This document shows positions 39,843 to 64,000 of a DNA stretch of 64,000 bases, one piece after another (the stretch's first letter is position 1; the number at the start of each line of letters is the position of its first letter). The translations under genes and the position numbers were made by a program. The notes beneath the pieces were generated by a model. It was not told the origin of the DNA. It did no database searches and was given only the letters and a program-made list of their open reading frames with translations. Source of the stretch: an uncultured Spirochaetota bacterium (GTDB lineage: Bacteria > Spirochaetota > Spirochaetia > SZUA-6 > Fen-1364); assembly GCA_963820525.1 (NCBI GenBank), contig CAWGAA010000001.1:1309299-1373298 (forward strand), read 5' to 3'.

Positions 39843-39845
39843 GAG

Positions 39846-42987: not shown

Positions 42988-43002
42988 GAGAAGAATGGGG
43001 CG

Positions 43003-43349: not shown

Positions 43350-43908
43350 ACACCAACAGGCGAAGCCGGCGACTTTGCCCGCCCCTTCGGGGCAGCCGCG
43401 AAAAGCAGCCACGGATGGTGAGTCCGGCTCCACGCTCCTGGAGGTCATGGTGGCCATCGGCATCATGTCCATCCTTGGGCTGGGGGCCTGGGGCGCCGTG
43501 TCCACCTCAATTCGGATGGCAGGTCGAATCAACGACAGGGTGCTGGAAAGCGTGCGCCTGCTCCAGCTTGACGACCGGCTTCGCGGGCTTGCCGGTCGCA
43601 TCCGCCCTCCCTATTGGGCATCGAAGCAATCCGTTGAGACTGAAGGGGGCACCCTGCGGGCGGCCTTCCTCGATGGAGACCCCGAAAAATCGATGAGCAT
43701 TTCCTTTGAGGACGGAGTCCTCTCCATCGATGACGGGGAATACTCAAGCCGATACTCGGATTTCAAGAGCGCCGAGTTTTCGCCCGCAGTAAACGACAGC
43801 AAAGTCACCTACGGCGTAACAGTGGATCTAAAAGCCAAGAGCGGAGACAAGATCTCCATAACTGCGCGCTTCGGCGGAACGCCGATAGGCAGCATGTCAG
43901 ATAAATGA
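43312..43908 (+). CDS. Minor pseudopilin (G|STLLEVMVAIGIMSIL, Glu+5) with a long predicted leader
   Basis: Canonical prepilin motif. ATG 43312 gives a 39-aa basic/Ser-rich leader. In-frame TTG 43375 would give an 18-aa leader. Confidence 0.6.
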   Translation: MRKSGRSSSSTSKHQQAKPATLPAPSGQPRKAATDGESGSTLLEVMVAIGIMSILGLGAWGAVSTSIRMAGRINDRVLESVRLLQLDDRLRGLAGRIRPPYWASKQSVETEGGTLRAAFLDGDPEKSMSISFEDGVLSIDDGEYSSRYSDFKSAEFSPAVNDSKVTYGVTVDLKAKSGDKISITARFGGTPIGSMSDK

Positions 43909-44921: not shown

Positions 44922-46075
44922 TCGTCCTGGGATATGCCAAGCAGAGCGGTGACGAGGTGCTCCTCCTGTCCATAGAGGACGGGCAGCCGCTTGCCGGCGC
45001 GCTCGCGCTCGATGGGTGCCTCATGTCCCGGCTCGACTTCGACGTTCAGATCCTGGAAATCCCCGTCGTTCCGGACAAGGAGGTGGAAGGCCTCATCCGC
45101 TACCGGCTTCGAAGCATCTATCCGGGAAACCCCAGCGAAACCGCCTTCGACTACCGGCTCCAGGCCAACGGCCATCAGAGCCGCGCCGTCGTCTTCATAT
45201 CCCAGAGATCGACTCTTGAGAAATACAAGAAGGCCGCCGAGCAGCGGCACCTTCTTCTCCCCTACTCCCTGACGGCGCCCCTGGCAAAAAGCGGCGCCGA
45301 CATGCGGGTCTGGTTCTGCCAGCGGGATTGGGCCGAGCTCAGCGTGTTTCGCGGTGGACTTGCCGTCTCCTCGCGCGTCCTCCAGAGAAACGAGGGAGAG
45401 CCGTTCGACATCGATGTAGCCGAAAGCGAACTGGACGCCGAGACAAAGGCTCTCCCCTGCCTGATCGTCGCCTCATCCGAGGAGATCCAGCGCCTCCAGG
45501 AGGAAATGGGAGACACCCAGGCGCGCGGCTTCACCTTGATCAGCTTCAAAAAGCTTCTTTCACAACAGAGAAAGGCCGAATGGCTCTTCAGCCCCCCGAA
45601 ACGGACGCCGTCATTTCTCAAGCCCGCAGTCAGGATGACTGCCCTGGCTGTCGCCGTGGCCGTCTTTGGGGTCCTTCTCTTCTTCAAGTACGTCGCATCC
45701 GTGGAGAGCCGCTACGAGGGGCTCAAGAAGCTCCACGCCTCCTTGGAAAAGGAGAGCGGGCGAACGCTCGCCATCCAGAAGGAAGTGGACGATCTGAGCT
45801 CCGAGCTTTCCAAGCTGCAGGCTGAAAAGCCGCAGGACCTCTACCTCTTCCTCTCCGAGCTTTCCTCGGTCCTGGGCGGCGAAGCCCAGATCCGAAGCAT
45901 GACCTTCCAGGGCGATGGTTTCCAGATAGAGGCCGTGGGGAGCAATCCCCTCAAGCTCATGGAGGGGTTCAGGAACCGTCCATCATTCGATAACGTGAAA
46001 CTCTCCCAGGTTGTGCCCGACGCGCGCACGGGCAAAGAGCGTTTCTCCTTCTCGGGGGCCTTCCATGCTCGCTAA
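44918..46075 (+). CDS. GspL/PilM-PilN-like assembly protein (cytoplasmic domain, single TM helix, periplasmic domain)
   Basis: GTG start overlaps the upstream stop (GTGA). Central TM helix AVRMTALAVAVAVFGVLLFF followed by a coiled-coil. Position in the operon. Confidence 0.5.
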   Translation: MIVLGYAKQSGDEVLLLSIEDGQPLAGALALDGCLMSRLDFDVQILEIPVVPDKEVEGLIRYRLRSIYPGNPSETAFDYRLQANGHQSRAVVFISQRSTLEKYKKAAEQRHLLLPYSLTAPLAKSGADMRVWFCQRDWAELSVFRGGLAVSSRVLQRNEGEPFDIDVAESELDAETKALPCLIVASSEEIQRLQEEMGDTQARGFTLISFKKLLSQQRKAEWLFSPPKRTPSFLKPAVRMTALAVAVAVFGVLLFFKYVASVESRYEGLKKLHASLEKESGRTLAIQKEVDDLSSELSKLQAEKPQDLYLFLSELSSVLGGEAQIRSMTFQGDGFQIEAVGSNPLKLMEGFRNRPSFDNVKLSQVVPDARTGKERFSFSGAFHAR

Positions 46076-46592
46076 AAGGGAGCGTCGGCTCCTCGTAGCC
46101 TTGGGAGTTGTGGTCGCGCTCTCGCTCCTCACCATTGCCTTGATCCTGGGCATGGAGCGTCTGGGAGCCGCACGAGTGAAAGCAGCCCAGTACGAGGCGC
46201 AGATCGCGAAGCTCTCGCGGTCCCTGCCCTCGGAATCCGATATCTCGGCGCTTCGGGAGAGCTTGAAGAAGGAGCTGGATGCCAGGAAGGCACGCTTCTA
46301 CTCTCCCGATCAGATGAACCCGTACTCGTTCGGGACGCTGATCAAGAAAGAGCTGACCTCCCACGGGATCACCGTTATCCGCTACCAGGTCATCGAGATC
46401 AGGGGCAAGAGCAGCCTGGAGTTCTCCGTGTCGGGAAACGTCAAATCACTGATCCTCTTCCTCCAGGACGTCTCACGGTCCGAGAAGTACTGGACCATCT
46501 CCTCTCTTACCCTCACTATGCGGGAAGGAACAGAAAAGGTGGATGCCGTATTCAGGATTGGCTATGAAGTCCTCGATAAAAAGAACAGCTGA
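46065..46592 (+). CDS. GspM/PilO-like protein (N-terminal TM anchor plus periplasmic domain)
   Basis: TM helix LLVALGVVVALSLLTIALIL followed by a coiled-coil and a C-terminal domain. Operon position. Confidence 0.45.
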   Translation: MLAKRERRLLVALGVVVALSLLTIALILGMERLGAARVKAAQYEAQIAKLSRSLPSESDISALRESLKKELDARKARFYSPDQMNPYSFGTLIKKELTSHGITVIRYQVIEIRGKSSLEFSVSGNVKSLILFLQDVSRSEKYWTISSLTLTMREGTEKVDAVFRIGYEVLDKKNS

Positions 46593-47037
46593 AGCGATCC
46601 TCGCGCTCGCGGCGATAGGAATACTCGCCGTGCTCTTGGTCCCCTGGCCGCAGGGCAAGCTAACTATCGCTCCCGGTGGCGAGCGCGCCCAGGTTCCGCA
46701 AGCGGCTGCCGGTGACGCGCGGCGAATTGAGAGCGCTCCTCCCGACGCGCTCCTGACTCTCTTTGTAAAAAAGACCCCCGTCCCGTCCGCTCCCCGGCCC
46801 GCGCGCGCCCCAGGCTCGGTCGAGAAGAAACCCGTTGACGCGCCATGGTTGAATTACCTCGGCTATTCCAGCGGCGCCGACGGAAAGCCCCTCCATTTCT
46901 TCAAGGACACGCGCACCGGCCGCCTGATCAAGCTTTCCAAGGGCGAGACATCCGGCGGGTGGGCTCTTGTCGAGATTGGCGAAAGCAGGTTTGTTCTCAA
47001 GAACAACGACGATCTTTATATCGTGACGAAGAGGTAG
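46564..47037 (+). CDS. Hypothetical periplasmic protein with N-terminal TM/signal anchor (GspC/PilP-like position)
   Basis: TM segment AILALAAIGILAVLLV. Pro/Ala-rich linker. C-terminal domain of ~70 aa. Confidence 0.4.
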   Translation: MKSSIKRTAEAILALAAIGILAVLLVPWPQGKLTIAPGGERAQVPQAAAGDARRIESAPPDALLTLFVKKTPVPSAPRPARAPGSVEKKPVDAPWLNYLGYSSGADGKPLHFFKDTRTGRLIKLSKGETSGGWALVEIGESRFVLKNNDDLYIVTKR

Positions 47038-47039
47038 AT

Positions 47040-47714
47040 ATGGGAAAAATTGCCGCTGCTTCCATGTTCTTCGCCCTGCTCCTGGCTTCCTGCGCATCCC
47101 AGGACAAGGTGGACATCATCAACTTCGACAGGTCACCCCTCTTCGGCATGGTCTATGACGACGACAACCAGCCCTGCTCCGGGGCAAAGCTGACCATCGA
47201 CGGCCAGCAGGGGCCGGTAACCGACATCCGCGGCAGGTTCATCCTCCCCGACCTGAGCCGCGGCGATCATACGCTCATTGTTCAAAAAGAAGGCTTCGAG
47301 GAGCTTTCCCTAAAGTTTCAGTTCCTGAGCAAGACCGACGTGCTGTACGTCAAGACAATCTCGTTCGGGCAGCTCCTCTCCAAGGCCGAGCGCTCCCTGG
47401 AGGAAAGGAAATGGGACAACGCTGATGAATTCCTGGCCAGGGCCGAGAAGCTGAACCCTGCGGACCCCGTGCTTCTGTATCTCAGGGCCGTGGAGATGTA
47501 CAAGACGGGCAAATACGACCAGGCGGTCCAGTACCTGAATACGATCATTGAAAAGGGCGTCAAAGACGCGAATGTATACCTGTTCCTGGCCGACATCTAC
47601 GAGAAGAACCTGAACAATCCGGAGAAGGCGATAGAGAACCTGCAGATATATCTTGAAAAGCGGACGGACCCGGATGTGCAGAAGAGGCTGGATGGGCTGA
47701 AGGGGAAGAAGTAG
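47040..47714 (+). CDS. TPR-repeat lipoprotein with carboxypeptidase-regulatory-like domain (possible secretin pilotin, PilF/PilW-like)
   Basis: Lipobox LLASC. CarbopepD_reg-like segment GRFILPDLSRGDHTLIVQKEGF. C-terminal TPR repeats. RBS GAAGAGG before ATG 47040. Confidence 0.6.
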   Translation: MGKIAAASMFFALLLASCASQDKVDIINFDRSPLFGMVYDDDNQPCSGAKLTIDGQQGPVTDIRGRFILPDLSRGDHTLIVQKEGFEELSLKFQFLSKTDVLYVKTISFGQLLSKAERSLEERKWDNADEFLARAEKLNPADPVLLYLRAVEMYKTGKYDQAVQYLNTIIEKGVKDANVYLFLADIYEKNLNNPEKAIENLQIYLEKRTDPDVQKRLDGLKGKK

Positions 47715-47993: not shown

Positions 47994-48269
47994 ATGGCCC
48001 GCTTCGCGATCACTCTAAGAGAAAGCGCCGATACTATACTCGGATTGAGAACCGCGAATCGAGAAGAATCTTCGCCAAGAATACGGATCCTCAGAAGATT
48101 AAAAGGAATCGCCACTCGTCCGCCATACCAAAAGGAAATGCTCTTTATAAAAAGATGTTATGCTCAAAGTGACAGAAATGACTGGATAGCGCAGCCCAAA
48201 GTCGCTATTGATATGATCTCCTCGGTGCAGAGCAGGAAGCGACGAAGTACGTTTGTTGATAGAGGATGA
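47994..48269 (+). CDS. Small hypothetical protein in the AT-rich island leader (questionable)
   Basis: ORF of ~92 aa with island-like composition. No recognisable homology. Confidence 0.25.
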   Translation: MARFAITLRESADTILGLRTANREESSPRIRILRRLKGIATRPPYQKEMLFIKRCYAQSDRNDWIAQPKVAIDMISSVQSRKRRSTFVDRG

Positions 48270-49548
48270 TTTTGCTGTCGGTTCCGAATGTTTGGGCATG
48301 ATCTGTCTAAAGGAGGGGCCATTGGCGATTCGCAATACCAGAAGCAATCGAAGCCAAATCCCTCTGCATGAAAACAGCATACAGAATAGCTTGGCGTACA
48401 GACAACACCGCGGCCACGGCCAAAAGGGGCAGAAGACTTTCAGACTTACGCATTCACCCTTATTGCGACTCAATGCCATCTGTCCCTATTACACGATGTT
48501 CCCGCTAGAGTTTCCTCTTCTACAGCTTGCAATGGCGAAGAAAAATGAGTGGGTTCTGGATCCCTTTTGCGGTAGGGGTACTACCATTTTCGCGGCGCGG
48601 TTGCTTGGCCTTGGATGCGTCGGTATAGACAGTAATCCCCTTGCGGCCGCCATTGCTGCGGCAAAATTAGCAAAAACTAAAGCCGAAGCCGTTGTTGATT
48701 TGGCCTCCTCAATTATCGAGAAGACAAAGATGCCGGCTGAGATACCGGATGGGGATTTTTGGCGTCTTTGTTTTCACCCTAAGACATTACGCGAAATTTG
48801 CGTGCTTCGTGAACAATTATTGAGGAGATGCGTCACGCATGAAGAAATCGTATTGCGTACCCTCCTCTTGGGTATTCTCCATGGGCCGCTTCAAAAGGGG
48901 AAACCAACCTATTTGTCAAATCAGATGCCACGCACCTATGCGACAAAACCCGCGTCCGCCATCCGTTTCTGGAAAAGAAAAGGTCTGGTAGCCCCTGCTC
49001 ATGTCGATGTCATAGACGCGATATCCAGACGAGCGGCGCATTTGCTAGTCGTGCAACCTCCACTATCCAGGGGCTCTGTATACTTAGGGGATTCAAGAGA
49101 TGCCCTTCGGCTTCTTCTCCATGAGCGCAAGTTCGGATGGGTTATAACGTCACCGCCTTACTTCGGGATGCGCACTTATCGGCCCGATCAGTGGCTACGA
49201 AACTGGTTCATTGGAGGCAAAGATCATGTGGATTACGGCCAGGAAGGTCAGCTCGCACATCACGCCGAACGCTTCGCCGCCGAGCTGGCAAGCGTGTGGA
49301 AGGCGATAGCGCCGCATTGCATGGCGGGAGCTCGGCTAATCGTCCGTTTCGGTTACCTACCGAGTATTCCCATCAATGCACGGAATCTTCTCAGCTACTC
49401 GTTGAAGTTGGCGAACGTTGGATGGCGTGCATACCGGTGGCTGGATGCAGGATCAGCAAGCAACGGAAATAGACAATCCGAGCAGTTCGGTTTTAATACT
49501 GGCTCCGCTGCTAGGGAATTGGATGTACACGCGCGTCTGGAGGCATAA
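48253..49548 (+). CDS. DNA methyltransferase (amino-MTase; AdoMet motif I ...WVLDPFCGRGTT... precedes catalytic motif IV SPPY)
   Basis: Matches the FP..L...LI..G..VLDPFxGxGTT AdoMet-binding signature (residues ~83-110). SPPYFG motif at ~residue 300 (ITSPPYFGMRTY). Start is uncertain: ATG 48253, TTG 48322 with an AAGGAGGGG RBS, or ATG 48496. Confidence 0.75.
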   Translation: MLIEDDFAVGSECLGMICLKEGPLAIRNTRSNRSQIPLHENSIQNSLAYRQHRGHGQKGQKTFRLTHSPLLRLNAICPYYTMFPLEFPLLQLAMAKKNEWVLDPFCGRGTTIFAARLLGLGCVGIDSNPLAAAIAAAKLAKTKAEAVVDLASSIIEKTKMPAEIPDGDFWRLCFHPKTLREICVLREQLLRRCVTHEEIVLRTLLLGILHGPLQKGKPTYLSNQMPRTYATKPASAIRFWKRKGLVAPAHVDVIDAISRRAAHLLVVQPPLSRGSVYLGDSRDALRLLLHERKFGWVITSPPYFGMRTYRPDQWLRNWFIGGKDHVDYGQEGQLAHHAERFAAELASVWKAIAPHCMAGARLIVRFGYLPSIPINARNLLSYSLKLANVGWRAYRWLDAGSASNGNRQSEQFGFNTGSAARELDVHARLEA

Positions 49549-49550
49549 TT

Positions 49551-50714
49551 ATGTTCGACCCGGATGAGTTGCCTGAACTGAAGCAGACTATAAGAATTGC
49601 AACCATTAGGGACCGGCACCTATTGGATGATTTACGTAAAGAAGTTCGAGCTCTTGCATCGGATGTCCGAGCCATCAAACACAGATCGACGACATCTGTA
49701 TCTTTGGTCGCAAGCGACGGGGGAAACAACAAACTTGTATTTGATCCATTCCATGTACAACTCGTACGTGTTGTGGATTCATACGGTGAGCAACTCTGTC
49801 TTGATGCGGTAACCCCCACAACGGATACGGATTTTCTTAGCCATGCTCAATTCCTTAATGACGGATCCCCTCGCACCGCCCTGGGCCACATGATGGCAGA
49901 TTTCAAAGTAGACCCCCCTTTGCTCAGCCAGCTCAGCCACATGATTCCTGAGGGCCAAAAAACTCGTGATCATCCTGATGAAGTATCTCCTTCCTGGGTT
50001 CTGGTTTACCGCGACCTTTGCGAATGGGCAGCACTTTATGAAAGGATCTGCTACCGGAATTTCGCAACCGACACTCTACTCGTTCGAGACGGGCTTCTGA
50101 GGAGCAAGCTCTTTCGGGGCAACCACTTCATCACCTACCGTAAGCGTATTGAGGAGGCGATCGAGAGAATCCGCCAAGAGACGCGGCGAAAGGTATTCCT
50201 GGTTGGCGTCGCGAAGCATAGCAAGGTTCTGGAACGGTATAATTTGACGATTGCCTTGGAAGGAACGTTTCCACCAGGAGCACCACGATTCGTAAAGATA
50301 CCTCGCGCTATCGAATCCAAAGCCTACGTGTGGCCAGAGTACGCTCGCGGTGCTGAGTATGAATCTGAAGAAGGTGAAGCACCAAAGTTTGTCGCAGGTG
50401 ATATGTACTTTGTCAGATTTGGAGAGCGCAGCGGTGACCCTTTATGGACTGTAGATATCCTGAGCAGTCAGTCTTCTTCTTCGGCTGAGATTTTCGGTTA
50501 CCTACTGGCCGACGCTATGGATGGCTTCCCCGTACCTTTTTATCCCAGATGTCTGCAAAAGGCTCATGAGTTTGCTCAAATAGTCGATTTCGACCTGGAT
50601 ATTTTGCAGGACGAGGTAGTCGATGCGGTGCGCGGCTTATTGAGTGACGAGGAAATCCCCGCCCTAGAAGGCCTTCGCCTTCAAGGTGATGTTTCCGCAA
50701 GGAGGTATGGATGA
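49551..50714 (+). CDS. NurA-like nuclease candidate (387 aa), translationally coupled to the MTase
   Basis: GGAGG RBS lies 8 nt before the ATG, which is 2 nt after the MTase stop. N-terminal acidic motif LVASDGGNNKL resembles the NurA catalytic D-G-S region. Genomic pairing with a HerA-like ATPase. The assignment is tentative. Confidence 0.45.
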   Translation: MFDPDELPELKQTIRIATIRDRHLLDDLRKEVRALASDVRAIKHRSTTSVSLVASDGGNNKLVFDPFHVQLVRVVDSYGEQLCLDAVTPTTDTDFLSHAQFLNDGSPRTALGHMMADFKVDPPLLSQLSHMIPEGQKTRDHPDEVSPSWVLVYRDLCEWAALYERICYRNFATDTLLVRDGLLRSKLFRGNHFITYRKRIEEAIERIRQETRRKVFLVGVAKHSKVLERYNLTIALEGTFPPGAPRFVKIPRAIESKAYVWPEYARGAEYESEEGEAPKFVAGDMYFVRFGERSGDPLWTVDILSSQSSSSAEIFGYLLADAMDGFPVPFYPRCLQKAHEFAQIVDFDLDILQDEVVDAVRGLLSDEEIPALEGLRLQGDVSARRYG

Positions 50715-50826
50715 AGCTTTTTACTGAGAGACGACGGTAGGAATTTTCCGCGGATTTAGCGAGGGCGGGCTGGAGTTCCATGCGGACCTCGTACTGCCCT
50801 ATCGCAATGAGTTTCAACGGGCTCCA

Positions 50827-52842
50827 ATGCACGGACAATTTCTCGTCGTACAACTCGAAGACGAAGATGAGGCCGTATTGGGACGCATTACTTCAATTTT
50901 CTCGGAGGGAAGACTAGCTTCCTCGGCGGGGGAAGATTACGGCATCCGGGCAGTCTCAGAAGAGCGGCCGATCCCGGAAGACCTACGCGAGCAATACCTG
51001 AAGTATCGAGTGAATATACGGGTTCTAGGAGTGATCCGTAAGGTCGACGGGAAGCTTGTATTCGCTGCGTCTCATCGGCGCTTACCACATGTGGGTAGCA
51101 AGGTCGCGTTTCTTACCGACGAAGTGCTTCGTGAAGTAGCTGGGCATAATATCATGAACGCTGCCGAAATAGGATATTTCGCACTCGGGGAGTTTATCTA
51201 TTCCGCGGATGATTCTAGACTTGCTCATGAACCCTGGATGCAGATCAGAAGCCCTGCCGTAATCCCAAAGTTCCGCGTACTTGACCTCGTGGCGCGAAGG
51301 ACATTTGTTTTTGCGCGCGCAGGTTTTGGGAAATCAAATCTCGTCAAACTTTTATTCGCTGATCTGTATAAAAACACTCCAACGGTAGAAAAGCGAGGCG
51401 GCAGACAAGTCGCAGTGGGGACTGTAATCTTCGATCCGGAAGGAGAGTATTTTTGGCCGGACGATAAGAACCGGCCGGGCCTTTGTGATGTTCCTGAGCT
51501 GCAGGATAAAATTGTCGTCTTCACTCCTAAGCGAAGTAAAAGTCCTTATTACCAGTCCTTCGTTGCTGGGGATATCAAGCTGGATATCAGAAGGCTCCGT
51601 CCAGGCGATGTCATTTCAATAGCTCTATCGCCGGAAAAACAGGATCAACAGAACGTAAGAAAACTCAAGGGGATGAACGACACCGATTGGCACCAGCTTG
51701 TAGACCTGGTGCATAAAGAGGGCAACGCCGCAGATGGAAACACGGTCCGGCAATTGCTACGTCTTGAAGAAGGGCAAGATGCCGAGATGGTAGCAGCGCG
51801 GGCAAATATGACGACAATCGTTAGGATGCTCCACGATCCCAGCAGCCAAATGATGGATATGCTCTTGACGGCGCTGCGTGATGGAAGGCTTTGTATAATC
51901 GATGTTTCTCAGATGCGCGGAGCTCCCGCACTAGTACTTTCCGGCTTGATCTTGAGGAGGATTTTCGACCATAACCAAGAAGAGTTCACGGAAGCGGAAC
52001 CACAGACAATCCCGGTAATCGCGGTTGTCGAAGAGGCCCAAACCGTTCTCGGGAGCAGTGGAAGCTCGGGAGAAGGCCCTTACATTTCATGGGTGAAGGA
52101 GGGAAGAAAGTACGACTTGGGAGCGGTTCTTGTCACACAGCAACCTGGATCGATCTCAAGCGAAATACTCAGCCAAGGCGATAATTGGTTTGCGTTCCAT
52201 CTGCTTTCAACCGGCGATCTCAGAGCTATAAAAAATGCAAATGCACATTTCAGTGACGACATCCTATCGTCTCTTCTAAATGAACCCATCCCAGGACACG
52301 GGGTTTTTTGGAGCAGTGTTGGGGGAAAAAGCTACCCCATCCCTATCCGCGTCCTATCTTTCGAAGGCCAATACAAGGCACTGGATCTGAAATACTCAAT
52401 GCCGACGGCTAATACGACCGCAAAGATTCTTCAACAGCGTTTTGCCGGCGCCCTTGCCGCAGCACTTGATTCAGCGCCACATGACACTTCAGTTACTGGT
52501 AAGGAAGAGCAGAGCCATGCCCCAGATGGAAGAGAACCAGAGCCTGACGAGAAACAAGACGCGTTGGAAACATATGCGCGTGCCGCCATGGAAAATCTGA
52601 AATCAGATCAACGGTTCCTCGATGCCTTACGGCAGTCCGGAAAGCCGTGGCGTGCTGTACAAGAGCAATTGAAGAACGGTCTTCCAGATGTTCTTTCCGA
52701 TCGAGGCGAAATCGCTCATCGGCTGGTAGTAAGGGTCATGACTGAACTCTTCGGTGAACAAAATGTCTCCTGGAAGACTGAGAAGCGGCCTTCCAAGAGT
52801 AGGCCGGGTGATTCAACGACTTGGATCGTGATTATCTCATAG
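50827..52842 (+). CDS. HerA-like ATPase (HerA/DUF87, FtsK-HerA superfamily)
   Basis: Walker A FARAGFGKSN. HerA-specific segments LCIIDVSQMRGAPALVLSGLILRRIF, Walker B IAVVEEAQTVLG, and EGRKYDLGAVLVTQQPGSISSEILSQGDNWFAFHL. Confidence 0.8.
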   Translation: MHGQFLVVQLEDEDEAVLGRITSIFSEGRLASSAGEDYGIRAVSEERPIPEDLREQYLKYRVNIRVLGVIRKVDGKLVFAASHRRLPHVGSKVAFLTDEVLREVAGHNIMNAAEIGYFALGEFIYSADDSRLAHEPWMQIRSPAVIPKFRVLDLVARRTFVFARAGFGKSNLVKLLFADLYKNTPTVEKRGGRQVAVGTVIFDPEGEYFWPDDKNRPGLCDVPELQDKIVVFTPKRSKSPYYQSFVAGDIKLDIRRLRPGDVISIALSPEKQDQQNVRKLKGMNDTDWHQLVDLVHKEGNAADGNTVRQLLRLEEGQDAEMVAARANMTTIVRMLHDPSSQMMDMLLTALRDGRLCIIDVSQMRGAPALVLSGLILRRIFDHNQEEFTEAEPQTIPVIAVVEEAQTVLGSSGSSGEGPYISWVKEGRKYDLGAVLVTQQPGSISSEILSQGDNWFAFHLLSTGDLRAIKNANAHFSDDILSSLLNEPIPGHGVFWSSVGGKSYPIPIRVLSFEGQYKALDLKYSMPTANTTAKILQQRFAGALAAALDSAPHDTSVTGKEEQSHAPDGREPEPDEKQDALETYARAAMENLKSDQRFLDALRQSGKPWRAVQEQLKNGLPDVLSDRGEIAHRLVVRVMTELFGEQNVSWKTEKRPSKSRPGDSTTWIVIIS

Positions 52843-53452
52843 CTTTTATTTGACGTTCATCAAGGTTCAGCCCGGCGGAAGCGTTTCCGGGCTGAGCTCG
52901 CCCGTGGGGGTCGCCCCTTTCGGGGCTCCAGGGCGGGCCGCGCGGCGTCGGCTAATAGGGCCCATTAACCGGACGCCGCGCTATCGCACAAACCGGAACT
53001 TCGCCCTTCGGTGCGGCCGTCAGCTACAATACGGCTCGGCCCTCCTTGGCCTCGCCGCGGCAGGTCCGTTCCCGCCAGCGCCACTCATGCGGCTGGTGCT
53101 AGGCCGCGTCGGCCGCCCCTTCAAGGGAGGCTGAACACGTTGCAGCCTCCTTCCGCCGGGCCTGGTGGCCGTGACGGTCCGTAAACCGATACTGCCTTTT
53201 GTATGCGGCTGGCGCGCCGACCGCACACATGAGCCGATCGTGCGGAGGGCTTTCTGTAGCGAAGAACGCGGGCAAGGACGCCCGCGAGCGATGAACGTAC
53301 AGAAACCTCGTCCCCCCATGAGCGTCCCCCTCCCTGGACGACCATTGGATACCATAAAGAGGGGGAAGCCGAGAGGGTGGGTTCCATGGAGAGGGAGCGG
53401 CGGGGGGACGAGGGAAGCCCTCCGCGCGGGGTTGTGGGTTCCTTTGACGGTG

Positions 53453-54124
53453 TCACGGCATGAGCAACAAAAAAAGTAGATCGTTTGGCAACAGGCAGTA
53501 GTTCAGCATCGTTACACTTGGGCTTGTACTTCCCAAAGTCCCTCTGACCGTCATCCTTGTCGGTGGAACTACGGGCGTATTGGATTGCTCCAACAGTTCG
53601 GAAATTCCACCCTTTTGGGAAATGATTATTCTCGTCCCCAATTCATAGTTGTAGATTACATCGCCATCTCTTCTCATCAATACCAAACCAGCGGCGTCCA
53701 GTATCTGGCCCTTTGATAGATCTACCCGGCGGACAACGCGGCCGTTTATGGTGTCCACAAAACCCGAGACAGTGGGTCGGAGGGACCGTTCGCCTTCCGC
53801 GTTCTCTTTGAGGAAGTCATTCTTGGTTGAGTATTGTACTTCCAGTCCATCTCCAGTCCATCTGATCCTTTGAGTATAATGGTACTGGTTGTTAGAATAC
53901 TCCGAATTGACCGTACTGTCGCTTTTTGATATGACAAGACGCTCGAGAGCGGAACTGTCAGACCTCTGCGTCTTGACGGCGCTCGTGACGACGCCATCGT
54001 CGCCCTTTTCTATTGTCCAATCAATGCTTTCCTGGCCGCCTCGAAGGCTTATTCCAATTGTTATTGTCTCAGCAGAAAGGCAGCCTCCGATCAACACTAA
54101 AAACAAAGCTGCGGTTGCTTTCAC
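53453..54124 (-). CDS. Lipoprotein (223 aa); putative immunity protein for the upstream Rhs C-terminal toxin
   Basis: Signal peptide with lipobox LIGGC. Immediately downstream (19 nt) of the Rhs toxin stop on the same strand. Confidence 0.55.
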   Translation of the reverse strand: MKATAALFLVLIGGCLSAETITIGISLRGGQESIDWTIEKGDDGVVTSAVKTQRSDSSALERLVISKSDSTVNSEYSNNQYHYTQRIRWTGDGLEVQYSTKNDFLKENAEGERSLRPTVSGFVDTINGRVVRRVDLSKGQILDAAGLVLMRRDGDVIYNYELGTRIIISQKGGISELLEQSNTPVVPPTRMTVRGTLGSTSPSVTMLNYCLLPNDLLFLLLMP

Positions 54125-54142
54125 CCAAACCCTCCCAATTGG

Positions 54143-57100
54143 CTAGTCGCCGGTGTTGGCCGTAATCGTAACGGGCGTTCTCTCGTAAAGCGCTGTTTGC
54201 ACAGTATCTCCGAGCTCATTGACATTGGCGTTACTCATTCGAATACAACCGTATGTATTATCATTGATATTGTTCGCAGCCTGTGGAGACGTCACGGATC
54301 CGGCTACACCATAGGCATTCCCACGCTCGTCATATCCCCCGCCGTGGACTGCATAGCCCCAGTCGGTTGTCGTACCACTCGGGACCCAATTGCCTTCGGG
54401 ATTCTGGACCTGGGTTGTAACGGTCTGATGAGCGTCCGTAATTATTTCAGTCTGGCCATAAGCGTCGTTGTTTGGATGTCTCACTTCTGTAACGTTCCAC
54501 GTTCCATTGGGAAATCGTTGAGGATAGTAGTTCTGCCCGCTTGGAGTTGTTGTCGCAGCGGGGGTCGCCATAGGTTGCGGATTGTTTGTGGCTGTATATG
54601 TGGCGACCTTTATGGTCGAAATCGCACCCGTATGAGAGGTGACATCAAGATAAACGCCCATTCTCTGATTTGCTCTGTCAAACACCAAACGCAGTCTGTC
54701 CAACCCCGTGGGATCCACGAACGCCAGTGGGTTATTCCAGCAGTACGCATACCAGTTCGCCCCATCGCGAGCTGGGTCCTCGGTTATGAATCTGCCTAGT
54801 TGTGGGTCATACCATCTGGCGTTGGAGTAATACAGGCCGGTGTCAGGATCAAGTTCCTTGCCCGTGTACATGCCGTCGAAGTCTAGTATCCCATTACTTC
54901 TCGCAATCTTTCCGAACGCTTCATACTCTGCATCCCACACAATCTGCCCCGAGATATTGGTAACGACATTGGTCGTTCCTTCGTGGTCGGTGTGATGCCA
55001 ATATGTCGTGCTGGTAGTCTCTGACGTGCGCACCTCGGCCCAGATCTGCCCTAGGGCTTCAATATACTTCCGCTGCACCTTTCCGTCTTCAGTCCAGAGC
55101 AAGTCGCCGGAAAGATCGTACTGATAGTAGTAAACGGTAGAACCCTTTGTCGTCTGAACCCTCAGGTCCCTGATATCGTACGAGTAACGGGCCACAGCCT
55201 TTAGCCCGGTGGTCCCTTTAGTCGAGTGACCCACCTGCACAAGACGGTTCTTCAGGTCGTACGTGTATTGCCAGAGCTCGCCGTTGTCTTGGTCCCAGGC
55301 GGATCGATTGGCAGCCGAGTCCCATCTCCCCTGGTTTCCGCGCGAGATCAGGTTCCCGTTCGCGTCGTAGTTGAATGACCAGCTTCCTGCCTGCTTAATT
55401 CTGCTTGAGCCGGCGTAATAGGTGTACACCTTGTCTTCTGAATAGCTGCCCTTGATATCGTTTTCCGCAAGCCTGTTGCCAAGGGCATCATATGTCCAAG
55501 AAGTCATATGTCCATTAACGTTGAACCAAACCTGTACCAGCTTCAAGGGGGTGTCGACCACCGTCGAATTATCCTCGGCGTGATTGCTTTCATCTCTTTC
55601 ATCCCAGGTCATGTGGACCTTCAAGAACTGAGCCTGATGAGAGCTTTCAAGTTGCAGCGTTACTCCACCTTCGTCCTGCATCCAAGTGGTGTCGGTGAGC
55701 TTTGTCCAGCTGCCGGATGTTCCGTCATTGCTCGCATAAAGCTCTACAGTTCTGGGAGAAATCCTGGAGCTGACGCCCGCAAGCCTTACCTTGTTGATGT
55801 TTCGAGCAGTCTGGAAATCGACCCCAACACTGGAAGCGTGGTAGTCCAGTTTGACAGGAGCGGATGGGTCACTGAAATCGAGGGGATTCCTTCCCGCCAC
55901 ATCTCGTTCCCGGCTTCCGTAGTTTATGCCGCTTATGTCTTTGGTGTTTACTTCAAACTCGCCGGCTTCCTGAGTCAAAACCAGCCGGTTGAGCTTGTCA
56001 TAGCCGTAAGAGCTGTAATGTCCATCCTTCACCTGGGTTACCAGGTTTCCTTCATTGTCCCATGCCAGGCTCCGAGCTGATTTTCCTTCAATATGCCAGT
56101 CATACTCTTCAAGCGATCCGGTGATGGGATCCCAATTCTTCGTGCGCCGCGAGCCGTCGGACGCCGAAAGGCTGGTGAGCCTTCCCATGAAGTTATACTG
56201 CCCGGCTGAGGCGTAGCCAGGAATGTCGGTGAGTTGTCCAAGGCCATTATAAAGACAGCTCACGACACTTCCATCAGGGTAGGTGATGCTTGTCGGGTTA
56301 TGGGCGTCGTCATAAGTATAGGAGACGCTGAGATTCTTTGAACCGACAGAAGTAGTGTAGCTGTTGATCAGGTCGTATGGATCCGGGACATAAATGGAGC
56401 TTGCCTGGTTTATCGAAGTCTGAACGCTCCCATCGGTTGCAGACTTCAGAGATCCCGCCGCGTCATAAGTCCAGGATTCATTGAGAGACCGGCTTCCGTT
56501 TGAGAAGCTCTTGGAAGTGATGCGTCCCGCATTGTCGTAGCCGTTTGTGATTGTGGTCTGGTTGGGGTCAGTTTGTTGGATCACAAGACCACGTTCATCG
56601 TAGGCGTAGCTCCAAACTTGACCCAGGTTGTTCTGTTCATAGGTAAGCTCTCCGTATTGGTCATACCCACGTACCCACACCTGGTTTCCATTCTGTGGAT
56701 TCTCGAAAACGCTCTGTACGGGTTCGTCCCAGACATCGTAGACGGTTCGTGTGACATTGCTGTAAGGGTCTGTGCTGCTGGCGGGCTTGTTCTGGCTATT
56801 GAACACTACCGTGGTGGTGTAGCCCATGGCGTCGCTTGTGCTTGTGGCGCGGCCCAGCTTATCCAGGATCAAGTGCTGCTCTGTTCTATCCGGGAAATAG
56901 GTATCGGTAAGGCGGCTCATGCCGTCATACGTCTTTGAGGTCACAAGGCCGGAGCTTGATTCGGGGTGTGCCGTGTTCAAGTTCGACACGACGATTTCCT
57001 TAACCGGATTTCCTTTAGCGTCGTACCCCCAAGCAGTGACTAGTGGCCCCGTTCCATCGGCACCGCTTACGCTTTGGCTGGTCTTTCTATTGCGAGAATC

Positions 57101-57992
57101 ATAGGTCCAAACCGTGACTTTCCCGGCAGGATCGATCTGGCTTGTGGCATTGCCGCGAAGATCGTAGGAGATCTGGACCTTTCCGCGCGGCCGTCCTGCC
57201 ACGGGCGGCAAGTCCGCTAACACGAGGCGGTCGAGGTCGTTATACAGGTAATTAAGGGTGAAGTTGTCCGAAACCGAGGGGTTGGGATTGGATCTTGGAT
57301 CCTTCATCTGGATCTTTCGATCCCGGATATCGTAGCGGTAGCGGACGGTTGCGCCGGTTGGATCGGTTTCGGTGAGCACTTGATTGCGGCTGGAGTAGCT
57401 TTTAAAGCTCAGTCCTTCTACTCCATCGACGTCCATGCTGTTATTCTTGATCGCTTCAACAACAAGCGGATCGGCATGTTGAATGAGGTTTCCCGAAGCG
57501 TCGTACCAGCTCCATTCCTCGCGTGTCCCAACAAGCTTCTTGATCGCTCTTCCCGCTGTGTCATAGGTAGATTCCACTGTTCGATAGTTGCCGGAGTGCC
57601 CTGTCTGTTGCCTGATGGCCTGCCCAGCATCGTCGTAGAGCGTGATATCTGTGGGTGTGGCGGTTGTCAGAGTAACATCGGGGAGGACAGTTGACGGCGT
57701 GGGCGGACTTTGCCAAACATCCACTGGAGGATGATCTACCTCTCTGGGCTTTCCGAATGGGCTATATCTGGTAACCGTCTTTTGCCCCAACGGATCGACA
57801 ACCGCGACAGTCTCTCCCAGGCCATTGTAATATGTCTGGGTAACGGCGTTAATTCCCCGCGGATCCACGATCTTGGTTTGTGTAGCGTCCTTCCAGGTGG
57901 TCCATTCCTGGGTGATTATCCCGCGCTCGTCCGTAGTGGTTTTAAGATTCTGAGAGTCGTCGTACACCGTGCTGATTCCGGCGCCGTCGGGG
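54143..57992 (-). CDS. Rhs/YD-repeat polymorphic toxin, C-terminal ~1280-aa portion. Contains YD repeats, the RHS core (…YDPQLGRFITEDP…FVDPTGL) and a C-terminal YkuD/L,D-transpeptidase-like (Tlde1-like) toxin domain. Separated from its N-terminal part by the IS insertion.
   Basis: Numerous YDxxGR(L)...PDG repeats. RHS-associated core motif. The C-terminal ~170 aa carry an L,D-transpeptidase signature (GYAVHGGG ... YGCIRMSNANVNELGDTVQ...TPVTI). The long ORF reported through 59362 is an antisense read-through of the IS. Confidence 0.8.
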
Positions 57993-59622
57993 TACGATAT
58001 GCGGGATATAACCGAATCTTGTGGGTGGACAGGGAATAAAAAGAGCGTATCCTTCGGTGAAACCAAGCACAACCAAGGAATCACCGATTGGAGGACACGC
58101 TCATGGACGAAACTATCACATCCGGGCTGAAAATCGAAGGGGGCAATTCCCAGGAATTGTTGGAGCAGTTGGTCCGCTCTGGCGCGCGCAGTGCCCTGCA
58201 GGCGGCGCTGGAGGAAGAAGTCAATCAGTTCCTGCAAAAGTTCACGCACTTGCGAGACGAGAAAGGGCACCGGAAGGCGGTGCGCAACGGCTACATGCCC
58301 CCGCGGACCATCCTCAGCGGGGTCGGGCCACTGCCGATCCGTCAACCGCGCGTGGACGATCGCGGGCTTCGCGATATCGAAGGGGGCGAACGATTCTCCA
58401 GCAGGATCCTGCCGCGCTTCATGCGCAAGATGCCGAGCCTGGAGGGGTTGATCCCGGTGCTGTACCTGAAGGGCATCTCCACGGGGGACTTCAGCGAAGC
58501 TTTGGCTGCGATCCTGGGCGAAGGGGCCAAGGGGCTGTCGGCCTCGACGATCACGCGGCTGAAGGAGGGGTGGCTGGAGGAGCACACGCAGTGGAGCAGC
58601 CGGGGCCTGGAGGACAAGGAGTACGTGTACCTGTGGGCGGACGGCATCTACGTCAACGTGCGTCTGGATGACGAACGCAGTTGTCTGCTGGTGCTCATCG
58701 GGGCCACACGGGAGGGCAAGAAGGAGCTGGTGGCCGTCAGCGACGGCTATCGCGAGAGTAAGGCCAGCTGGCGGGAGATGCTGCTGGACCTGAAGGCCCG
58801 GGGGCTGAGAATGGCAGGAAAACTGGTCATTGGGGATGGGGCGCTGGGATTCTGGGCAGCGGCCGAGGAGGTGTTCCCGGGGATGAAGCACCAACGCTGC
58901 TGGGTGCACAAGACCGCCAACGTTCTGGACAAGCTGCCCAAGGGGGTTCAGTCGAAGGCCAAGGCGATGCTTCACGCCATGTATCAGGCCGAGACGAAGG
59001 AGGCGGCACTGAAGGCGTATCGTTTGTTCATCGGCTGCTTTAGGGACAAGTACCCCAAGGCCGTGGAATGCCTGGAGAAGGACGAGCAGGCCCTTTTCAC
59101 GTTCTACGAGTTTCCCGCGGCGCACTGGCTTCACATACGAACGACCAACCCCATCGAGTCCACGTTCGCGACGGTGAGGCTTCGCACGGCGAAGACCAAG
59201 GGGTGCGGATCGCGGGCGGCCACCCTGTCGATGGTGTTCAAGCTCTGCCGGGAGGCGGAGAAGAGCTGGCGGGGTCTGGACGGGGCAAAGTGGATCCCGA
59301 TGGTGCTGGAGGGCAAGCGTTTCATCGACGGAGAGCTCAAGGAGGACGTCGCGTAGCGGCATCCGTCAGCCACCCGGGGCTGGGAAGATCGGCGGCGAAC
59401 AGGATGGCTGCAAATCGTCGTGAGGATGTTCGACGAGTCATCGACTGAAAAATCGTGCGTCGTGGTGGGCCTACAACGCATTTGCGAAGGCCAGTTGGTA
59501 TCTGTACACCCCCTCTACGGCGCCCGGTCTCGAGGAAAGGAGGGCATAGGGGTCAACAGCAGTTTCGAAATCATCGTTGGATACGCTCGCAATCCTGATC
59601 CACAAGAATTGACAATATCCCA
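57993..59622 (+). mobile_element. IS256-family insertion sequence (~1630 bp) with imperfect ~26-bp terminal inverted repeats and an 8-9-bp target-site duplication (A)CGATATGC
   Basis: IRL GGGATATAACCGAATCTTGTGGGTGGACAG. IRR (reverse complement) GGGATATTGTCAATTCTTGTGGATCAGGAT. TSD at 57985-57992 and 59623-59630. Contains one transposase gene. Confidence 0.85.
58088..59356 (+). CDS. IS256-family (Mutator-like) transposase
   Basis: Collinear IS256 transposase signatures (LYLKGISTGDF, YLWADGIYVNVR, LIGATREGKKELVAV, IGDGALGFWAAAEEVFP, QRCWVHKTANVL). Confidence 0.9.
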   Translation: MEDTLMDETITSGLKIEGGNSQELLEQLVRSGARSALQAALEEEVNQFLQKFTHLRDEKGHRKAVRNGYMPPRTILSGVGPLPIRQPRVDDRGLRDIEGGERFSSRILPRFMRKMPSLEGLIPVLYLKGISTGDFSEALAAILGEGAKGLSASTITRLKEGWLEEHTQWSSRGLEDKEYVYLWADGIYVNVRLDDERSCLLVLIGATREGKKELVAVSDGYRESKASWREMLLDLKARGLRMAGKLVIGDGALGFWAAAEEVFPGMKHQRCWVHKTANVLDKLPKGVQSKAKAMLHAMYQAETKEAALKAYRLFIGCFRDKYPKAVECLEKDEQALFTFYEFPAAHWLHIRTTNPIESTFATVRLRTAKTKGCGSRAATLSMVFKLCREAEKSWRGLDGAKWIPMVLEGKRFIDGELKEDVA

Positions 59623-62600
59623 CGATATGCTTGCAGGCCTTCCTTTCGCATCATATCCATAACCGGTAGTATGCCCGTTTGGATCCGTCATTGAGGCCAC
59701 ATCGCCCCAAGCCGTATACGTCACCCTTGTGGTAATGTCTTCAGGAGTCGCCAGGGCAACAAGCGCACCGGCCTGGACTCCCAAATAGTTGTGCTTGTCT
59801 ATGCGTATCAATTGCCCCAGTGTGTCATAGGCATACACCTCGAAAGGCTTTCCGATGTTGTTGCTCGCCCCTGAGGTGAAAGATGCTTTGTAGACGGTTG
59901 CGGTGAGAGCGGAATCGTTGTATGCAATATGGGTCCATGGCGAATTGGCATGAACCACGTTCCAGGTTCCGGGGGCTAGCGGAGGCTCATCACCGGGCTT
60001 GATCGTGTCGGTGACCCTGCCTAGCTTGTCATAGCGATATTCGGTTACATATCCCCGGGCATCCTTCTCGTAGAGCTTCCAGCCGCTCCACCAGTCCGTA
60101 GCGGTCTCGCTGACAAGGCTTGTTCGGCTGCCGATGGGGTCGGCCACATTCTGGACGGTCTGCGTCGCGACGAAAAAGTCCTTCGAGGTTCTTGAGTAAT
60201 CATAATCCCAGATGGTTTTCTGGTCGGGGTTCGGGCCGGTCTTGCTCTTTACCGCACCGGCGGATAGAAGAGCCGAGTCTGTAAAGTATTCGTAATCAGA
60301 CCTTGACCAGTGATCGCCCAGCCACAAACCTTCTGATTTCTTGAGCCCAAATGAATTATACAGGAACTGCTGGGCACGTTCATCGAATCCGCCGCCCGCC
60401 TCATTGGGGCGGTAGGCATGGATCAGCGTGCCCTTGAGCAGGTCATGTGTTTCTCCATTGCTCAGTGCATCATCCGATCCCATTGAGGGCAGATTCCAAA
60501 CGGAGGGAGCTGAGGATCCGCTGTTCAGATACCACATCCATCGTTCGCATTTGTTTTCTCTGCCGTTGGCAAAGCTGTCTTCAAAAACGTAAGTCTGGTT
60601 TCCCCAAGCGTCATAGCGATAGACATTCCTGGAAGTCGTGGCAGATCCACGAGTTGTTGTTGAAGCTGTGATGTGATGATGCGTGGTGTCCCATGTATTG
60701 GAAACTGATTCGAGAAACCTCCCGGTGGCCGCATCGTATGTTGAAGAACCGGATTGGAGCGTGGAGACTTCGTTCACCGTTAATCCTTGACTGGAAAAGA
60801 CGGACTGGAGGTATGTCGCGAGGTAATCGTCCCAGCTTATGAACCGGTTTCGGCTGTGGACCACCGTCATGAAGTCTTGCACGGTTTTTAGCCGGCCATC
60901 ATTGGTCGTTGCCCTACTTACGTAGAATTGGTATTCCCTCGAAGACCATTCATAGGAGTAGCTTGTGTTCCTGATAACCCCTGTGCTGCTTGTCACCTTG
61001 ACGTTTTCAGTCGCTAAACGAAGAATGATGTCGTAGCTGAGCTTGAGGGCGGTAGGGAAGAGACCCAAAAACCAGTCGTCCGCTTCCGCCTTGAACAGCG
61101 ATAAGTCCTTGACGCCGACGCCGACATCCGTGGTTCCTATTCCGGGGGCGACGACCCTGCTGATGGCATATGGGAAATTGAGCTCGATATGTCCGCTTAA
61201 GGTCAGATCCGCTATTCCCAACAGATTGTTCATGAATCCAAGGCCGGTCAGTTCGAGCAGGAGGGCGAGGAAATTGATTTTGACGCTTCCCCCTCCTGCA
61301 ACAAGGGTTTTTCGTTCATAAAAGTAGGTGCTGATTCTGCCTACCGGATCTGTCGAGGAGTCGAGAGTCGGGAGAAAATTGAACAAGAAGGATAGGTCAC
61401 TGGAGGCGGTCCAATTGTAATTGTAGCTGGCTGTCCTTGTTTGGCCCTCAAAGCCGGAAGTCGAGATCTTGGTAATGACCGGCTTTAAAAAGATGGAAGC
61501 CGCCGGCGGCAAATTGTACTCGAAATTGACTTTTCGGCCGAAATCGTCCGTTATACTTTCAAGCAGAAGGCCGTTGTAGGTGAAGTGAAATCCCGATAAG
61601 CCGGTCTTATCCCTTATCTGGACCACACGGCCGTTTCCATCAAAAAGATAGTAGGTGCCGTCTCTTGTCCACAGCTCGCTTGCAATCGTGTTCCAGCCCG
61701 GAATTAATTTGGGAAGGAGATTCAGCGTTCCATCGCCCACACCAAGAGCTTGGCAGATTTTAGAGATTGCGGCTGAGCCGGTTATGCCGGTTGCATCTAT
61801 GTTACCCCGAACCTGCGTGGCGCGGAAATGAAAATCCTCGCCTTCATGAAACTCGAAGTCAAGAGTCCGTGAAACCGGATTCGACCAGAAGCTGCTCTGG
61901 CTTTCCATCTGGTTGATGCCGTAGTAGCCGCCGGTGGGAAGCCGAACCATCACCGTTTCATTCGTGGTTATCACGTAGGGAAGGCTCAACCGCCAGCCGA
62001 CGCCTAGGGAAAGTGCGTAATCTCCGTTATGTTTCAACATGCCGTCGACCTTTGCCTTGATTGCCCCCACCATGGTGCTTACGCCGTTGGAGACCAGCTG
62101 TCCTCCGATGAAATCACCCAGTCCGGCAAGATCCCCCAGATTGGAAAGGCCAAGGCTGATCGATGCACTCAAAGAAAGGCTCGGGCTGTCAACGGTCGCC
62201 GTGCCTGTGTCATACATCCTCTTGATGGGAAGGGTGAATCCGTTCTTTCCCTGAAGAACGAACTCCGTGACTTCCACCATCGCCGTTCCGCCCTGTGGGG
62301 ACACCGTCACCGCCCCCAAGGAGCTTTCCCCCTTGAACGGGCTATGCCCGATGTCCTTGAGCTGCTGGGGTGAGAGGTCCTGGATCATGGTGGGTTGAAC
62401 GGAAAACGCGGTGAAATGGTTTGTAAAGAAGAGGATTTTATGCTGATCTCGGTCTATCGCAGACTTTTCGATAAGAAACCATTTATTCCAAGTCGTATCG
62501 AAGTAGTAAACGCCGAGGTTCGCTTCGGGAAACCCGTTGGGAAGCCGGCTTTCATCATAATCCAGGACTACGACCACTTCTTTGGAGAACTCGGCATGCG

Positions 62601-64000
62601 AGTTTTCGCTTAAGCTCCCGTCTTGGCCCAGCGCCAGTGTGCTTAAGGAGTAGATGGGTCCGATTATGGGATAGGCTGAGGCGTCCTGCAGCCCCTGGCT
62701 TTCCACCTCCTGCACAAGGACCACCTTGTCCTCCTGCGGCAAAGCCGAAGGTGGGATGACCACCCCAAAACCCTTGTATTCTACAATCGTGGTCTCTTGG
62801 GGATTTGAGGAAACCGGTTGGACCGCCAGTCCGGAAATAGTGTCCAAGGTCTGTGTCTTGGGCCCCATGTTGGCGGCGCGGTCTTCAGCCCAAACCTCAT
62901 AGCTGTACACGTCTCCATCGGTCAAGCCCGTGTCATCCACCTGGAGAGAAGGAGTGAGATGTTCCCCGTCGGGCAAGGCCGGCGAGCGAACTATGTGATA
63001 CCGTATAACGTCCGTGTCGGAAGTCTGCCAGATCACCTCCACCAAGCCCTTGCCTGGTATGCCCTTGAGATTCTGAACGGCAGCAGGCGGAGTGGTATCG
63101 ATTTTCAATTCAATGGATTCGATGGTCGCATTCCCCGCCACATCCAGCGCTTTCACTTGCACCTGGTGAACGCCGTCTGAAAGAATTGGTAGTCTGTAGG
63201 GGCTGCTCTGGGACGTCCAGCTTCCGGCATCGATCTGTGCCTCGAAGTGATCCATTCCCGAATAGCTGTCTGTAGTTGAGAACGAGATTGTGGGCTGGTT
63301 GTTGCTCGTCCAGCCGCTGACGTTCGCCGTGATAATAAAGCGCGCGGGAGGCGTGTTGTCGATCTTAAGCGGCACACTGACTACCGACCCCGCGGTTCCC
63401 GCCTTGTTCACGGGCTGCAGCTTGAAGACAAACGCGCCTTCAACCGTCATGGGGATAGAGAGGCTGAAGGATCCCGAGGAGGCGTCGTAGCCGACGCCGT
63501 TGACGATGATTCGATCGGGATCGGGGCTGTTTACGGTTCCCTTGACGGGAACAACGCGGGAATAGAACGTGTTTGCCACGGGCTGGATCAGGCTCAGACT
63601 CGGCTTGGATCGATCTAAAAAAACCTGAAGAGTTTTCGTGACAGGCTTGATGCGGTCGTCAGCGGTAACGACGAGCGTGTTCAACCCGTCCGAAAGCGTG
63701 ATGGGCTGGCTGGTGTAGCGGAAGCCGTCAATTGTCGCCGTCTTTCCGTTAACTGTGACCTTGACCCGATTCCTGCTTATAACGGTGCCGGATACCACAT
63801 ACTTTGCAGAATTGACATAGGCAACACGGCCCTCTCCGTCTATTGTTAGAATAATGCCTTTGTCATAGCGAACGATTGTCACCGTGGCCTTCTGGATCAT
63901 GGCACCGGTTCTCACATCGTAGGCATACACGGGAATCGTGTTGATTCCATACTGTAGGCCGGCCGTGTAATGGAAGGCGCCGGAAATCACGGGAACTTCC
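59623..64000 (-). CDS. Rhs/YD-repeat polymorphic toxin, N-terminal portion (continues beyond window end). Contains Ig-like/Big domains, an SpvB-like domain, a beta-propeller region and YD repeats. Truncated by the IS.
   Basis: Ig-like repeats at the N-terminus. SpvB signature (VTVSPQGGTAMVEV...LSLGVGWRLSLPYV). YD repeats (YRYDKLGRV..., GYGYDAKGRPASIS|). Reading into the IS gives a 35-aa junk tail and a stop at 59515. Splicing out the IS and one TSD copy restores ...YDAKGRPASISYPDGAGISTVYDD... Confidence 0.8.

Follow-up and report, generated by a model that had tools for sequence, protein, structure and literature searches.

An insertion-split Rhs toxin gene with a YkuD-fold C-terminal tip and an exported immunity candidate in an uncultured Spirochaetota bacterium

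We analyzed a 64,000-nucleotide stretch of DNA (hereafter the window) from an uncultured Spirochaetota bacterium (assembly GCA_963820525.1, contig CAWGAA010000001.1, positions 1,309,299 to 1,373,298), in which a gene for a Rhs/YD-repeat polymorphic toxin is followed by a small open reading frame (ORF) for a candidate immunity protein. An earlier reading made from the letters alone (the sequence-only reading) had proposed an Rhs toxin ending in an L,D-transpeptidase-like domain of the YkuD/Tlde1 kind, with a lipoprotein as its immunity partner. With a probability of roughly 72%, we read the locus as a Rhs toxin-immunity module in which the tip of the toxin is a YkuD-fold cysteine peptidase attacking peptidoglycan stems, the immunity partner is exported, and the Rhs gene is interrupted by an IS256-family insertion sequence (IS). 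The earlier interpretation is thus supported in part; it missed the insertion, which makes this locus a Rhs/YD-repeat polymorphic toxin but a disrupted member of that group.

The 3′ part of the Rhs gene and the downstream ORF of 223 amino acids both lie on the minus strand where the sequence-only reading had placed them, and the RHS core and DPTGL motif that it described were both recovered (Table 1). The Pfam model for RHS repeats (PF05593) matches the 3′ part with an E-value of 2.6e-47 and the 5′ part with an E-value of 2.1e-15, and the RHS core model (PF03527) matches the 3′ part with an E-value of 9.8e-9. The core ends in the sequence YDPQLGRF...NNPLAFVDPTGL, the stretch from YDPQLGRF to VDPTGL spanning 54701-54808, and the gene's ORF stops at 54143 on the minus strand. 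A DPxGL junction likewise precedes the homologous tips of L002, L004, P0002, P0013, P0019, P0079, and P0080 (L and P numbers are our labels for related loci and proteins, all of which come from metagenome assemblies).

The tip, i.e., the 185 residues that follow the junction, contains the sequence VHGGGY...TYGCIRMSNANVNELG, and the claim that the last ~170 amino acids carry a YkuD signature was borne out. When searched alone, the tip matched the Pfam YkuD family (PF03734) with an E-value of 4.9e-8 and 34.1 bits against a gathering score of 23.4; as this score lies above the curated cut-off, the motif is not there by chance, and several relatives of the tip also score above the gathering threshold. 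The motif comprises His119 (54344-54346, minus strand) and T149-Y-G-C152-I-R (Cys152 at 54245-54247, minus strand), which fits the YkuD catalytic pattern His...(S/T)xGC(I/V)R. Across 21 diverse family members, P64, G66, H119, T149, G151, and C152 are invariant, and a profile built from those 21 sequences retrieved only L,D-transpeptidases among its five non-noise matches to the Protein Data Bank (PDB). The top match was Bacillus subtilis YkuD (E-value 0.0011), on whose catalytic His and Cys the His and Cys of the family align, in agreement with the His/Cys dyad proposed earlier.

Could the likeness to YkuD be a shared motif only, with the tip being a different toxin of unrelated fold? A single-sequence search of PDB sequences with the tip returned nothing relevant, a profile from 4 sequences gave marginal YkuD matches only, and a first AlphaFold2 model from the same number of sequences, with a predicted local distance difference test score (pLDDT) of 63.5, yielded meaningless Foldseek matches and was replaced. 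In contrast, the replacement model, generated from 44 sequences, was confident (pLDDT 89.8, predicted template modeling score 0.85), with residues 127-136 as its uncertain part. A Foldseek comparison of this model to the PDB, the very check that the sequence-only reading had suggested, returned the L,D-carboxypeptidases Bdellovibrio Bd1075, Campylobacter Pgp2, and Helicobacter Csd6 (E-values of 1e-4 to 7e-4) and the amidase DpaA at a probability of 1.00 and LdtMt5 at 0.93. Every match with a probability of at least 0.9 was a YkuD-fold enzyme, and the five best were L,D-carboxypeptidases. Together with the Pfam scores and the aligned catalytic residues, this makes an unrelated fold very improbable, and the model identifies the tip as a YkuD-fold enzyme.

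Relatives of the tip were collected by searching its profile against 1.84 billion representative proteins at an E-value of 0.001 or lower, which returned 131 matches. Classical L,D-transpeptidases are very common, so a yield of only 131 marks the tip clade as a distinct branch. Of 132 aligned clade proteins, 129 have the domain no more than 30 residues from the C-terminus, and a DPxGL-type junction precedes it in 48 clade proteins, many of the others being contig fragments. Eleven clade proteins exceed 700 amino acids; five of these were scanned, and RHS repeats were found in all five and DUF6531 in four. Across the clade, the catalytic His and Cys are 10 to 35 residues apart, and the spacing of the window copy, at 33 residues, is near the long end.

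Toxins of this general kind are not new. The sequence-only reading had called such a cargo unusual and had named Tlde1 as the only similar case, but Zhang, de Souza, Anantharaman, Iyer, and Aravind (2012, Biol Direct 7:18; PMC3482391, table, section 18) already listed "Tox-LD-peptidase" toxins, with an LD-peptidase fold bearing H, S, and C residues, RHS repeats, and trafficking by type II or type VI secretion systems (T2SS, T6SS) or TcdB-TcaC; they also noted the domain in PVC-type toxins, i.e., those of extracellular contractile injection systems (eCIS). The window locus resembles these toxins in having an L,D-peptidase-fold tip (H, S/T, C) at the C-terminus of an RHS protein with a linked immunity gene, in having eCIS relatives, and in its predicted action on peptidoglycan L,D bonds. 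It differs in its immunity protein: the partners given for Tox-LD-peptidase are Imm16/DUF2750 (alpha+beta) and Imm57 (mostly alpha) (PMC3482391), neither of whose models is matched here, whereas the window protein carries a signal sequence and has no match in Pfam or NCBIfam; our comparison to that clade is by description only.

Two distant relatives of the tip, P0142 and P0151, share their loci (L005:4972-8052 and L007:1385-4887) with eCIS_core (PF13699) genes, and the genes flanking them belong to the NADase_transloc family (PF25302). These loci look like effector cassettes of extracellular contractile injection systems.

The Tlde1/Tae5 (DUF2778) effectors of Salmonella are likewise antibacterial members of the L,D-transpeptidase superfamily with a His/Cys dyad, are toxic in the periplasm, and have a periplasmic immunity protein; some are fused to Rhs, with Rhs-DUF2778 fusions reported in 11% of the genomes of one sub-family (2020 Tlde1/Tae5 preprint, 10.1101/2020.02.18.954545). 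Nevertheless, the "Tlde1-like" part of the earlier description did not survive closer comparison. The tip matches YkuD and not DUF2778 (PF10908), a model that found neither the window tip at an E-value of 0.1 or lower nor four relatives at 10 or lower. Tlde1a was not among the best 50 structural matches listed by Foldseek, and the His-Cys spacing is 10 residues in Tlde1, against 33 in the window tip. The tip is therefore not in the Tlde1/DUF2778 family. As to secretion genes, none for a T6SS, PAAR, or VgrG turned up among the window ORFs that were scanned or around L004, an intact relative that has a Sec signal peptide. The best structural matches of the tip, Csd6 of Helicobacter pylori, Pgp2 of Campylobacter jejuni, and Bd1075 of Bdellovibrio, share the YkuD catalytic core but are only 13-16% identical to it; these enzymes serve cell shape, carry an additional NTF2-like domain, and are not toxins, with no Rhs fusion and no immunity partner.

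The 223-residue protein encoded downstream of the tip was the immunity candidate of the sequence-only reading, and comparison of related loci upholds that role. Its ORF starts with GTG, 5 nucleotides after a GGGAGG Shine-Dalgarno sequence and 18 nucleotides past the Rhs stop codon. Homologues are rare (3 clusters in 5.8 billion, one of which is the window protein itself), and every homologue that could be placed directly follows a homologous toxin tip. In L002, where the Rhs gene is cut at the contig end with 1,582 amino acids seen, the immunity homologue is 52% identical, and in L003, where the tip is an orphan, it is 51% identical. L004 encodes an intact Rhs protein of 1,948 amino acids with a signal peptide and DUF6531, whose stop codon is overlapped by the start of an immunity gene with 27% identity by BLASTP (E-value 3e-18). 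In L014, behind toxin tip P0136, the homologue was recognized by hhalign with a probability of 99.7%, and in L015, behind toxin tip P0002, the immunity copy is truncated, as judged by eye from the translation. Immunity homologues are 24-52% identical and the toxins have diverged to 52-60%; a pairing that outlasts divergence on both sides is the hallmark of toxin and immunity genes. On this comparative evidence, the downstream gene behaves as a cognate immunity gene.

The protein opens with a hydrophobic Sec signal sequence, and the earlier description of it as a periplasmic lipoprotein was right about export but not about lipidation. The lipobox-like LIGGC is confined to the window copy, the lipobox cysteine being absent at that position from P0005, P0006, L004, L014, and L015. 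In contrast, five homologues share a signal-peptidase-I-like ..(S/F/Y)(A/S)|(E/Q) site before a conserved (E/Q)xI(T/S)I. Sequence comparison thus supports export for the family and does not support lipidation as a family property. Searches of the protein against Pfam (E-value of 10 or lower, noise aside), NCBIfam, and PADLOC gave no match. A profile search of the PDB with the immunity family returned polyubiquitin chains, which were rejected as repeat-summed noise, since a single ubiquitin scores an E-value of only ~0.5-1 and the match extends over the signal peptide.

Two further observations concern this family and its movement. Its members end in a conserved hydrophobic tail, NY(C/I)LLPx(E/D)L(R/L)(F/Y)LLL(I/M)P, seen in the window protein (53453-53500, minus strand), L004 (10522-11190), P0005, and P0006, and resembling no sorting signal that we recognized. 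At L003:1-720, in-frame stop codons immediately precede the orphan tip, which begins at ...CIDPKGLD, and a complete immunity homologue comes next. The pair is a displaced toxin/immunity cassette, the type of unit behind the exchange of Rhs tips.

Upstream of the tip, the Rhs gene is split in its shell-coding region by an IS256-family element flanked by perfect copies of a 9-bp repeat, ACGATATGC. The element occurs once in the window and carries an apparently intact transposase ORF of the Mutator/IS256 family (58088-59356, plus strand), whose product matches Pfam Transposase_mut (PF00872) with an E-value of 2.4e-62 over profile positions 23-377 of 379 and is 56% identical to annotated IS256-family transposases. 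When the IS and one repeat copy are removed in silico, the upstream ORF (59515-63990), which encodes Ig-like domains and RHS repeats, is joined in frame to the 3′ portion across a junction reading ...YDAKGRPASISYPDGAGISTVYDD..., giving a single ORF of at least 2,742 amino acids that still runs off the window end. Position 57992, the start coordinate given in the sequence-only reading, is not a gene start but the junction with the IS; the gene begins past the window end. That the duplication is perfect and neither half of the gene contains a stop codon points to a recent insertion. No uninterrupted (empty-site) allele was found in a scan of the JGI metagenome collection, and a metagenome scan for the 5′ end of the window's Rhs gene likewise found nothing.

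The insertion also produces an annotation hazard. A mechanically called ORF of 1,739 amino acids (54143-59362, minus strand) is a chimera whose first ~455 codons run antisense through the GC-rich IS without a stop, and it could mislead automated gene callers. The toxin gene should be annotated as an IS-disrupted pseudogene, the ORF at 54143-59362 as a chimera, and the downstream gene as an exported immunity protein rather than a lipoprotein.

Because the IS inserted in the shell-coding region, the toxin-bearing 3′ part has been severed from the N-terminal part for export and delivery, and production of the toxin has probably ceased in this genome. This raises the question of whether the whole locus is a decaying remnant, with toxin and immunity gene unexpressed and the module without present function, a reading to which we give somewhat less than even odds. 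Apart from the split gene, it draws on the lack of any promoter-like site above background upstream of the immunity gene and on the position of the module in a low-GC island (~50% versus 60%) beside defense genes. However, the insertion is recent by the evidence given above, and the immunity ORF is undamaged, with a strong Shine-Dalgarno sequence in front of it. Intact immunity genes beside dead toxins are commonly kept for protection. The remnant scenario moreover bears on the present activity of the module and not on its identity.

For that identity, we favor a toxin that acts on peptidoglycan, and the following course of events is proposed for an intact copy. In characterized Rhs toxins, the YD-repeat shell encloses the tip and a core protease cuts after the junction motif. 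By analogy, the Rhs/YD-repeat protein would form a shell around the 185-residue C-terminal domain, and the aspartyl-protease core of the shell would cut after DPTGL, freeing the tip. At the wall of a rival, Cys152 and His119 of the released tip would attack the L,D bond between residue 3 of the stem peptide (meso-diaminopimelic acid or Lys) and D-Ala4, the tip acting as an L,D-carboxypeptidase and/or exchange enzyme in the manner of Tlde1 and Csd6/Pgp2. Usable stem peptides would thereby be depleted and the rival's wall weakened. The 223-residue partner would be exported by Sec to the periplasm of the producer and would bind and block the toxin there; its export fits a toxin acting in the periplasm or cell wall.

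The choice of bond is the least direct of these steps, and a tip with the same fold and delivery may act elsewhere, by detaching Braun's lipoprotein like DpaA/LdtF or by making aberrant 3-3 cross-links. DpaA is indeed among the significant structural matches (8ikr, E-value 2e-3), LdtMt5 matches too, and the sequence family of the tip is closer to YkuD than to DUF2778/Tlde1. Yet none of the five best structural matches is an enzyme of these other kinds, and Tlde1, the sole characterized toxin of this fold, is a carboxypeptidase/exchange enzyme (PMC9638812; 10.1101/2020.02.18.954545). A cross-linking toxin would also need donor and acceptor sites, to which nothing here points. We therefore find another bond distinctly unlikely, and because the best structural neighbors and Tlde1 agree in their chemistry, stem trimming or exchange is the likeliest activity.

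As to delivery, the closest parallel to L004 is provided by WapA and other Sec-exported Rhs toxins that work without a T6SS. As in those toxins, the Rhs protein of L004 bears a signal peptide, DUF6531, and RHS repeats and ends in a tip behind a DPxGL junction; its gene is overlapped by the immunity gene, and no injection apparatus is encoded nearby. With its Sec signal peptide and no T6SS, PAAR, or VgrG genes around it, L004 corresponds to what Zhang et al. call the "T2SS" class. The parallel is incomplete, as the WapA toxins characterized to date are for the most part nucleases working inside the cytoplasm of Gram-positive cells, whereas the host here is diderm, as indicated by the T2SS secretin, GspE, and GspF genes at 37.6-42.6 kb.

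Several points weigh against the peptidoglycan-directed module that we favor. An enzyme that acts in the periplasm and is carried on a Sec-exported Rhs protein must pass the outer membrane of the rival, and the N-terminus of the window's Rhs protein, which would hold the information on the export route, falls outside the window. The residue before the Gly-Cys of the motif is Tyr and not the His of the classical (S/T)HGC motif, and the Foldseek template modeling scores are moderate, at 0.45-0.51 normalized to the query. The loop between His119 and Cys152 (residues ~122-149) is unusually long for the family and modeled at low confidence, which leaves both the active-site shape and the substrate uncertain. 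Lastly, neither a promoter signal nor a terminator signal rises above background around the immunity gene.

Much of this was known in outline, L,D-peptidase toxins on Rhs scaffolds having been predicted in 2012, and disruption by an IS is as such ordinary. The modest novelty lies in a rare sub-clade whose His-Cys loop is very long and in an immunity family present in no library. At the bench, only the distant Tlde1 branch has been studied so far, and the pair described here could be used to ask what sets YkuD-type toxins apart from housekeeping L,D-transpeptidases and by what means a protein inhibitor blocks the YkuD fold, the latter bearing on L,D-transpeptidases as drug targets. A bolder suggestion, which we regard as conceivable but unlikely, is that the 223-residue protein is the founding member of a so far undescribed family of proteins that inhibit YkuD-fold enzymes and that the clade, with its variable His-Cys loop, bridges classical L,D-transpeptidases and Tlde1, with a substrate specificity not yet seen, e.g., one suited to delivery by a Sec-exported Rhs protein without an injection machine.

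Table 1. Positions of the toxin module, the insertion sequence, and neighboring genes in the 64,000-nucleotide window.
Feature	Position	Strand	Basis or description
Cognate immunity candidate, 223 aa	53453-54124	-	Sec signal sequence; outside known families
Toxin tip, 185 aa, YkuD / L,D-peptidase fold (model-based)	54146-54700	-	Pfam, profile-PDB, AlphaFold2, Foldseek
DPTGL, C-terminal Rhs autoproteolysis junction motif	54701-54715	-	Translation
Rhs shell, 3′ portion	54716-57993	-	RHS/YD repeats, ~110-aa beta-rich insert, RHS core ending YDPQLGRF...VDPTGL
Target-site duplication, copy 2, ACGATATGC	57994-58002	.	Perfect 9-bp direct repeat
IS256-family insertion sequence, 1,619 bp	58003-59621	+	Imperfect terminal inverted repeats GGGATAT(A/T)...
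Target-site duplication, copy 1, ACGATATGC on + strand	59622-59630	.	Perfect 9-bp direct repeat
Rhs, 5′ portion	59631-64000	-	Glucodextran_B x2, Big_13 Ig-like domains, then first RHS repeats (translation, Pfam); extends off window end
T2SS operon	37674-47714	+	Secretin 37674-39842, GspE 39846-41357, GspF 41357-42562, then probable pseudopilins
Type II DNA methyltransferase	48253-49548	+	ORF
387-aa protein, no family	49551-50714	+	ORF
HerA-like ATPase	50827-52842	+	Below-cut-off matches to anti-phage HerA models of PADLOC and NCBIfam
94-aa ORF	within 48253-53134	+	ORF

The ~110-residue insert amid the RHS repeats lies at 55517-55855 on the minus strand (VKLDYHASSVGVDF...LVQVWFNV) and is beta-rich. 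It has no Pfam match, and the Rhs translation of L002 shows a similar segment at the matching position. The insert may represent a discoidin-like carbohydrate-binding module, a type that Zhang et al. report as embedded in RHS repeat regions.

No rRNA, tRNA, or Rfam matches were found in the window. The genes at 48253-53134 on the plus strand, beside the toxin module, likely form a defense cluster. At ~47.5 kb the GC content falls from ~60% to ~50%, and on account of this drop the stretch from 47.5 to 64 kb looks like an acquired island. The T2SS operon is located ~6 kb from this Rhs-bearing island.

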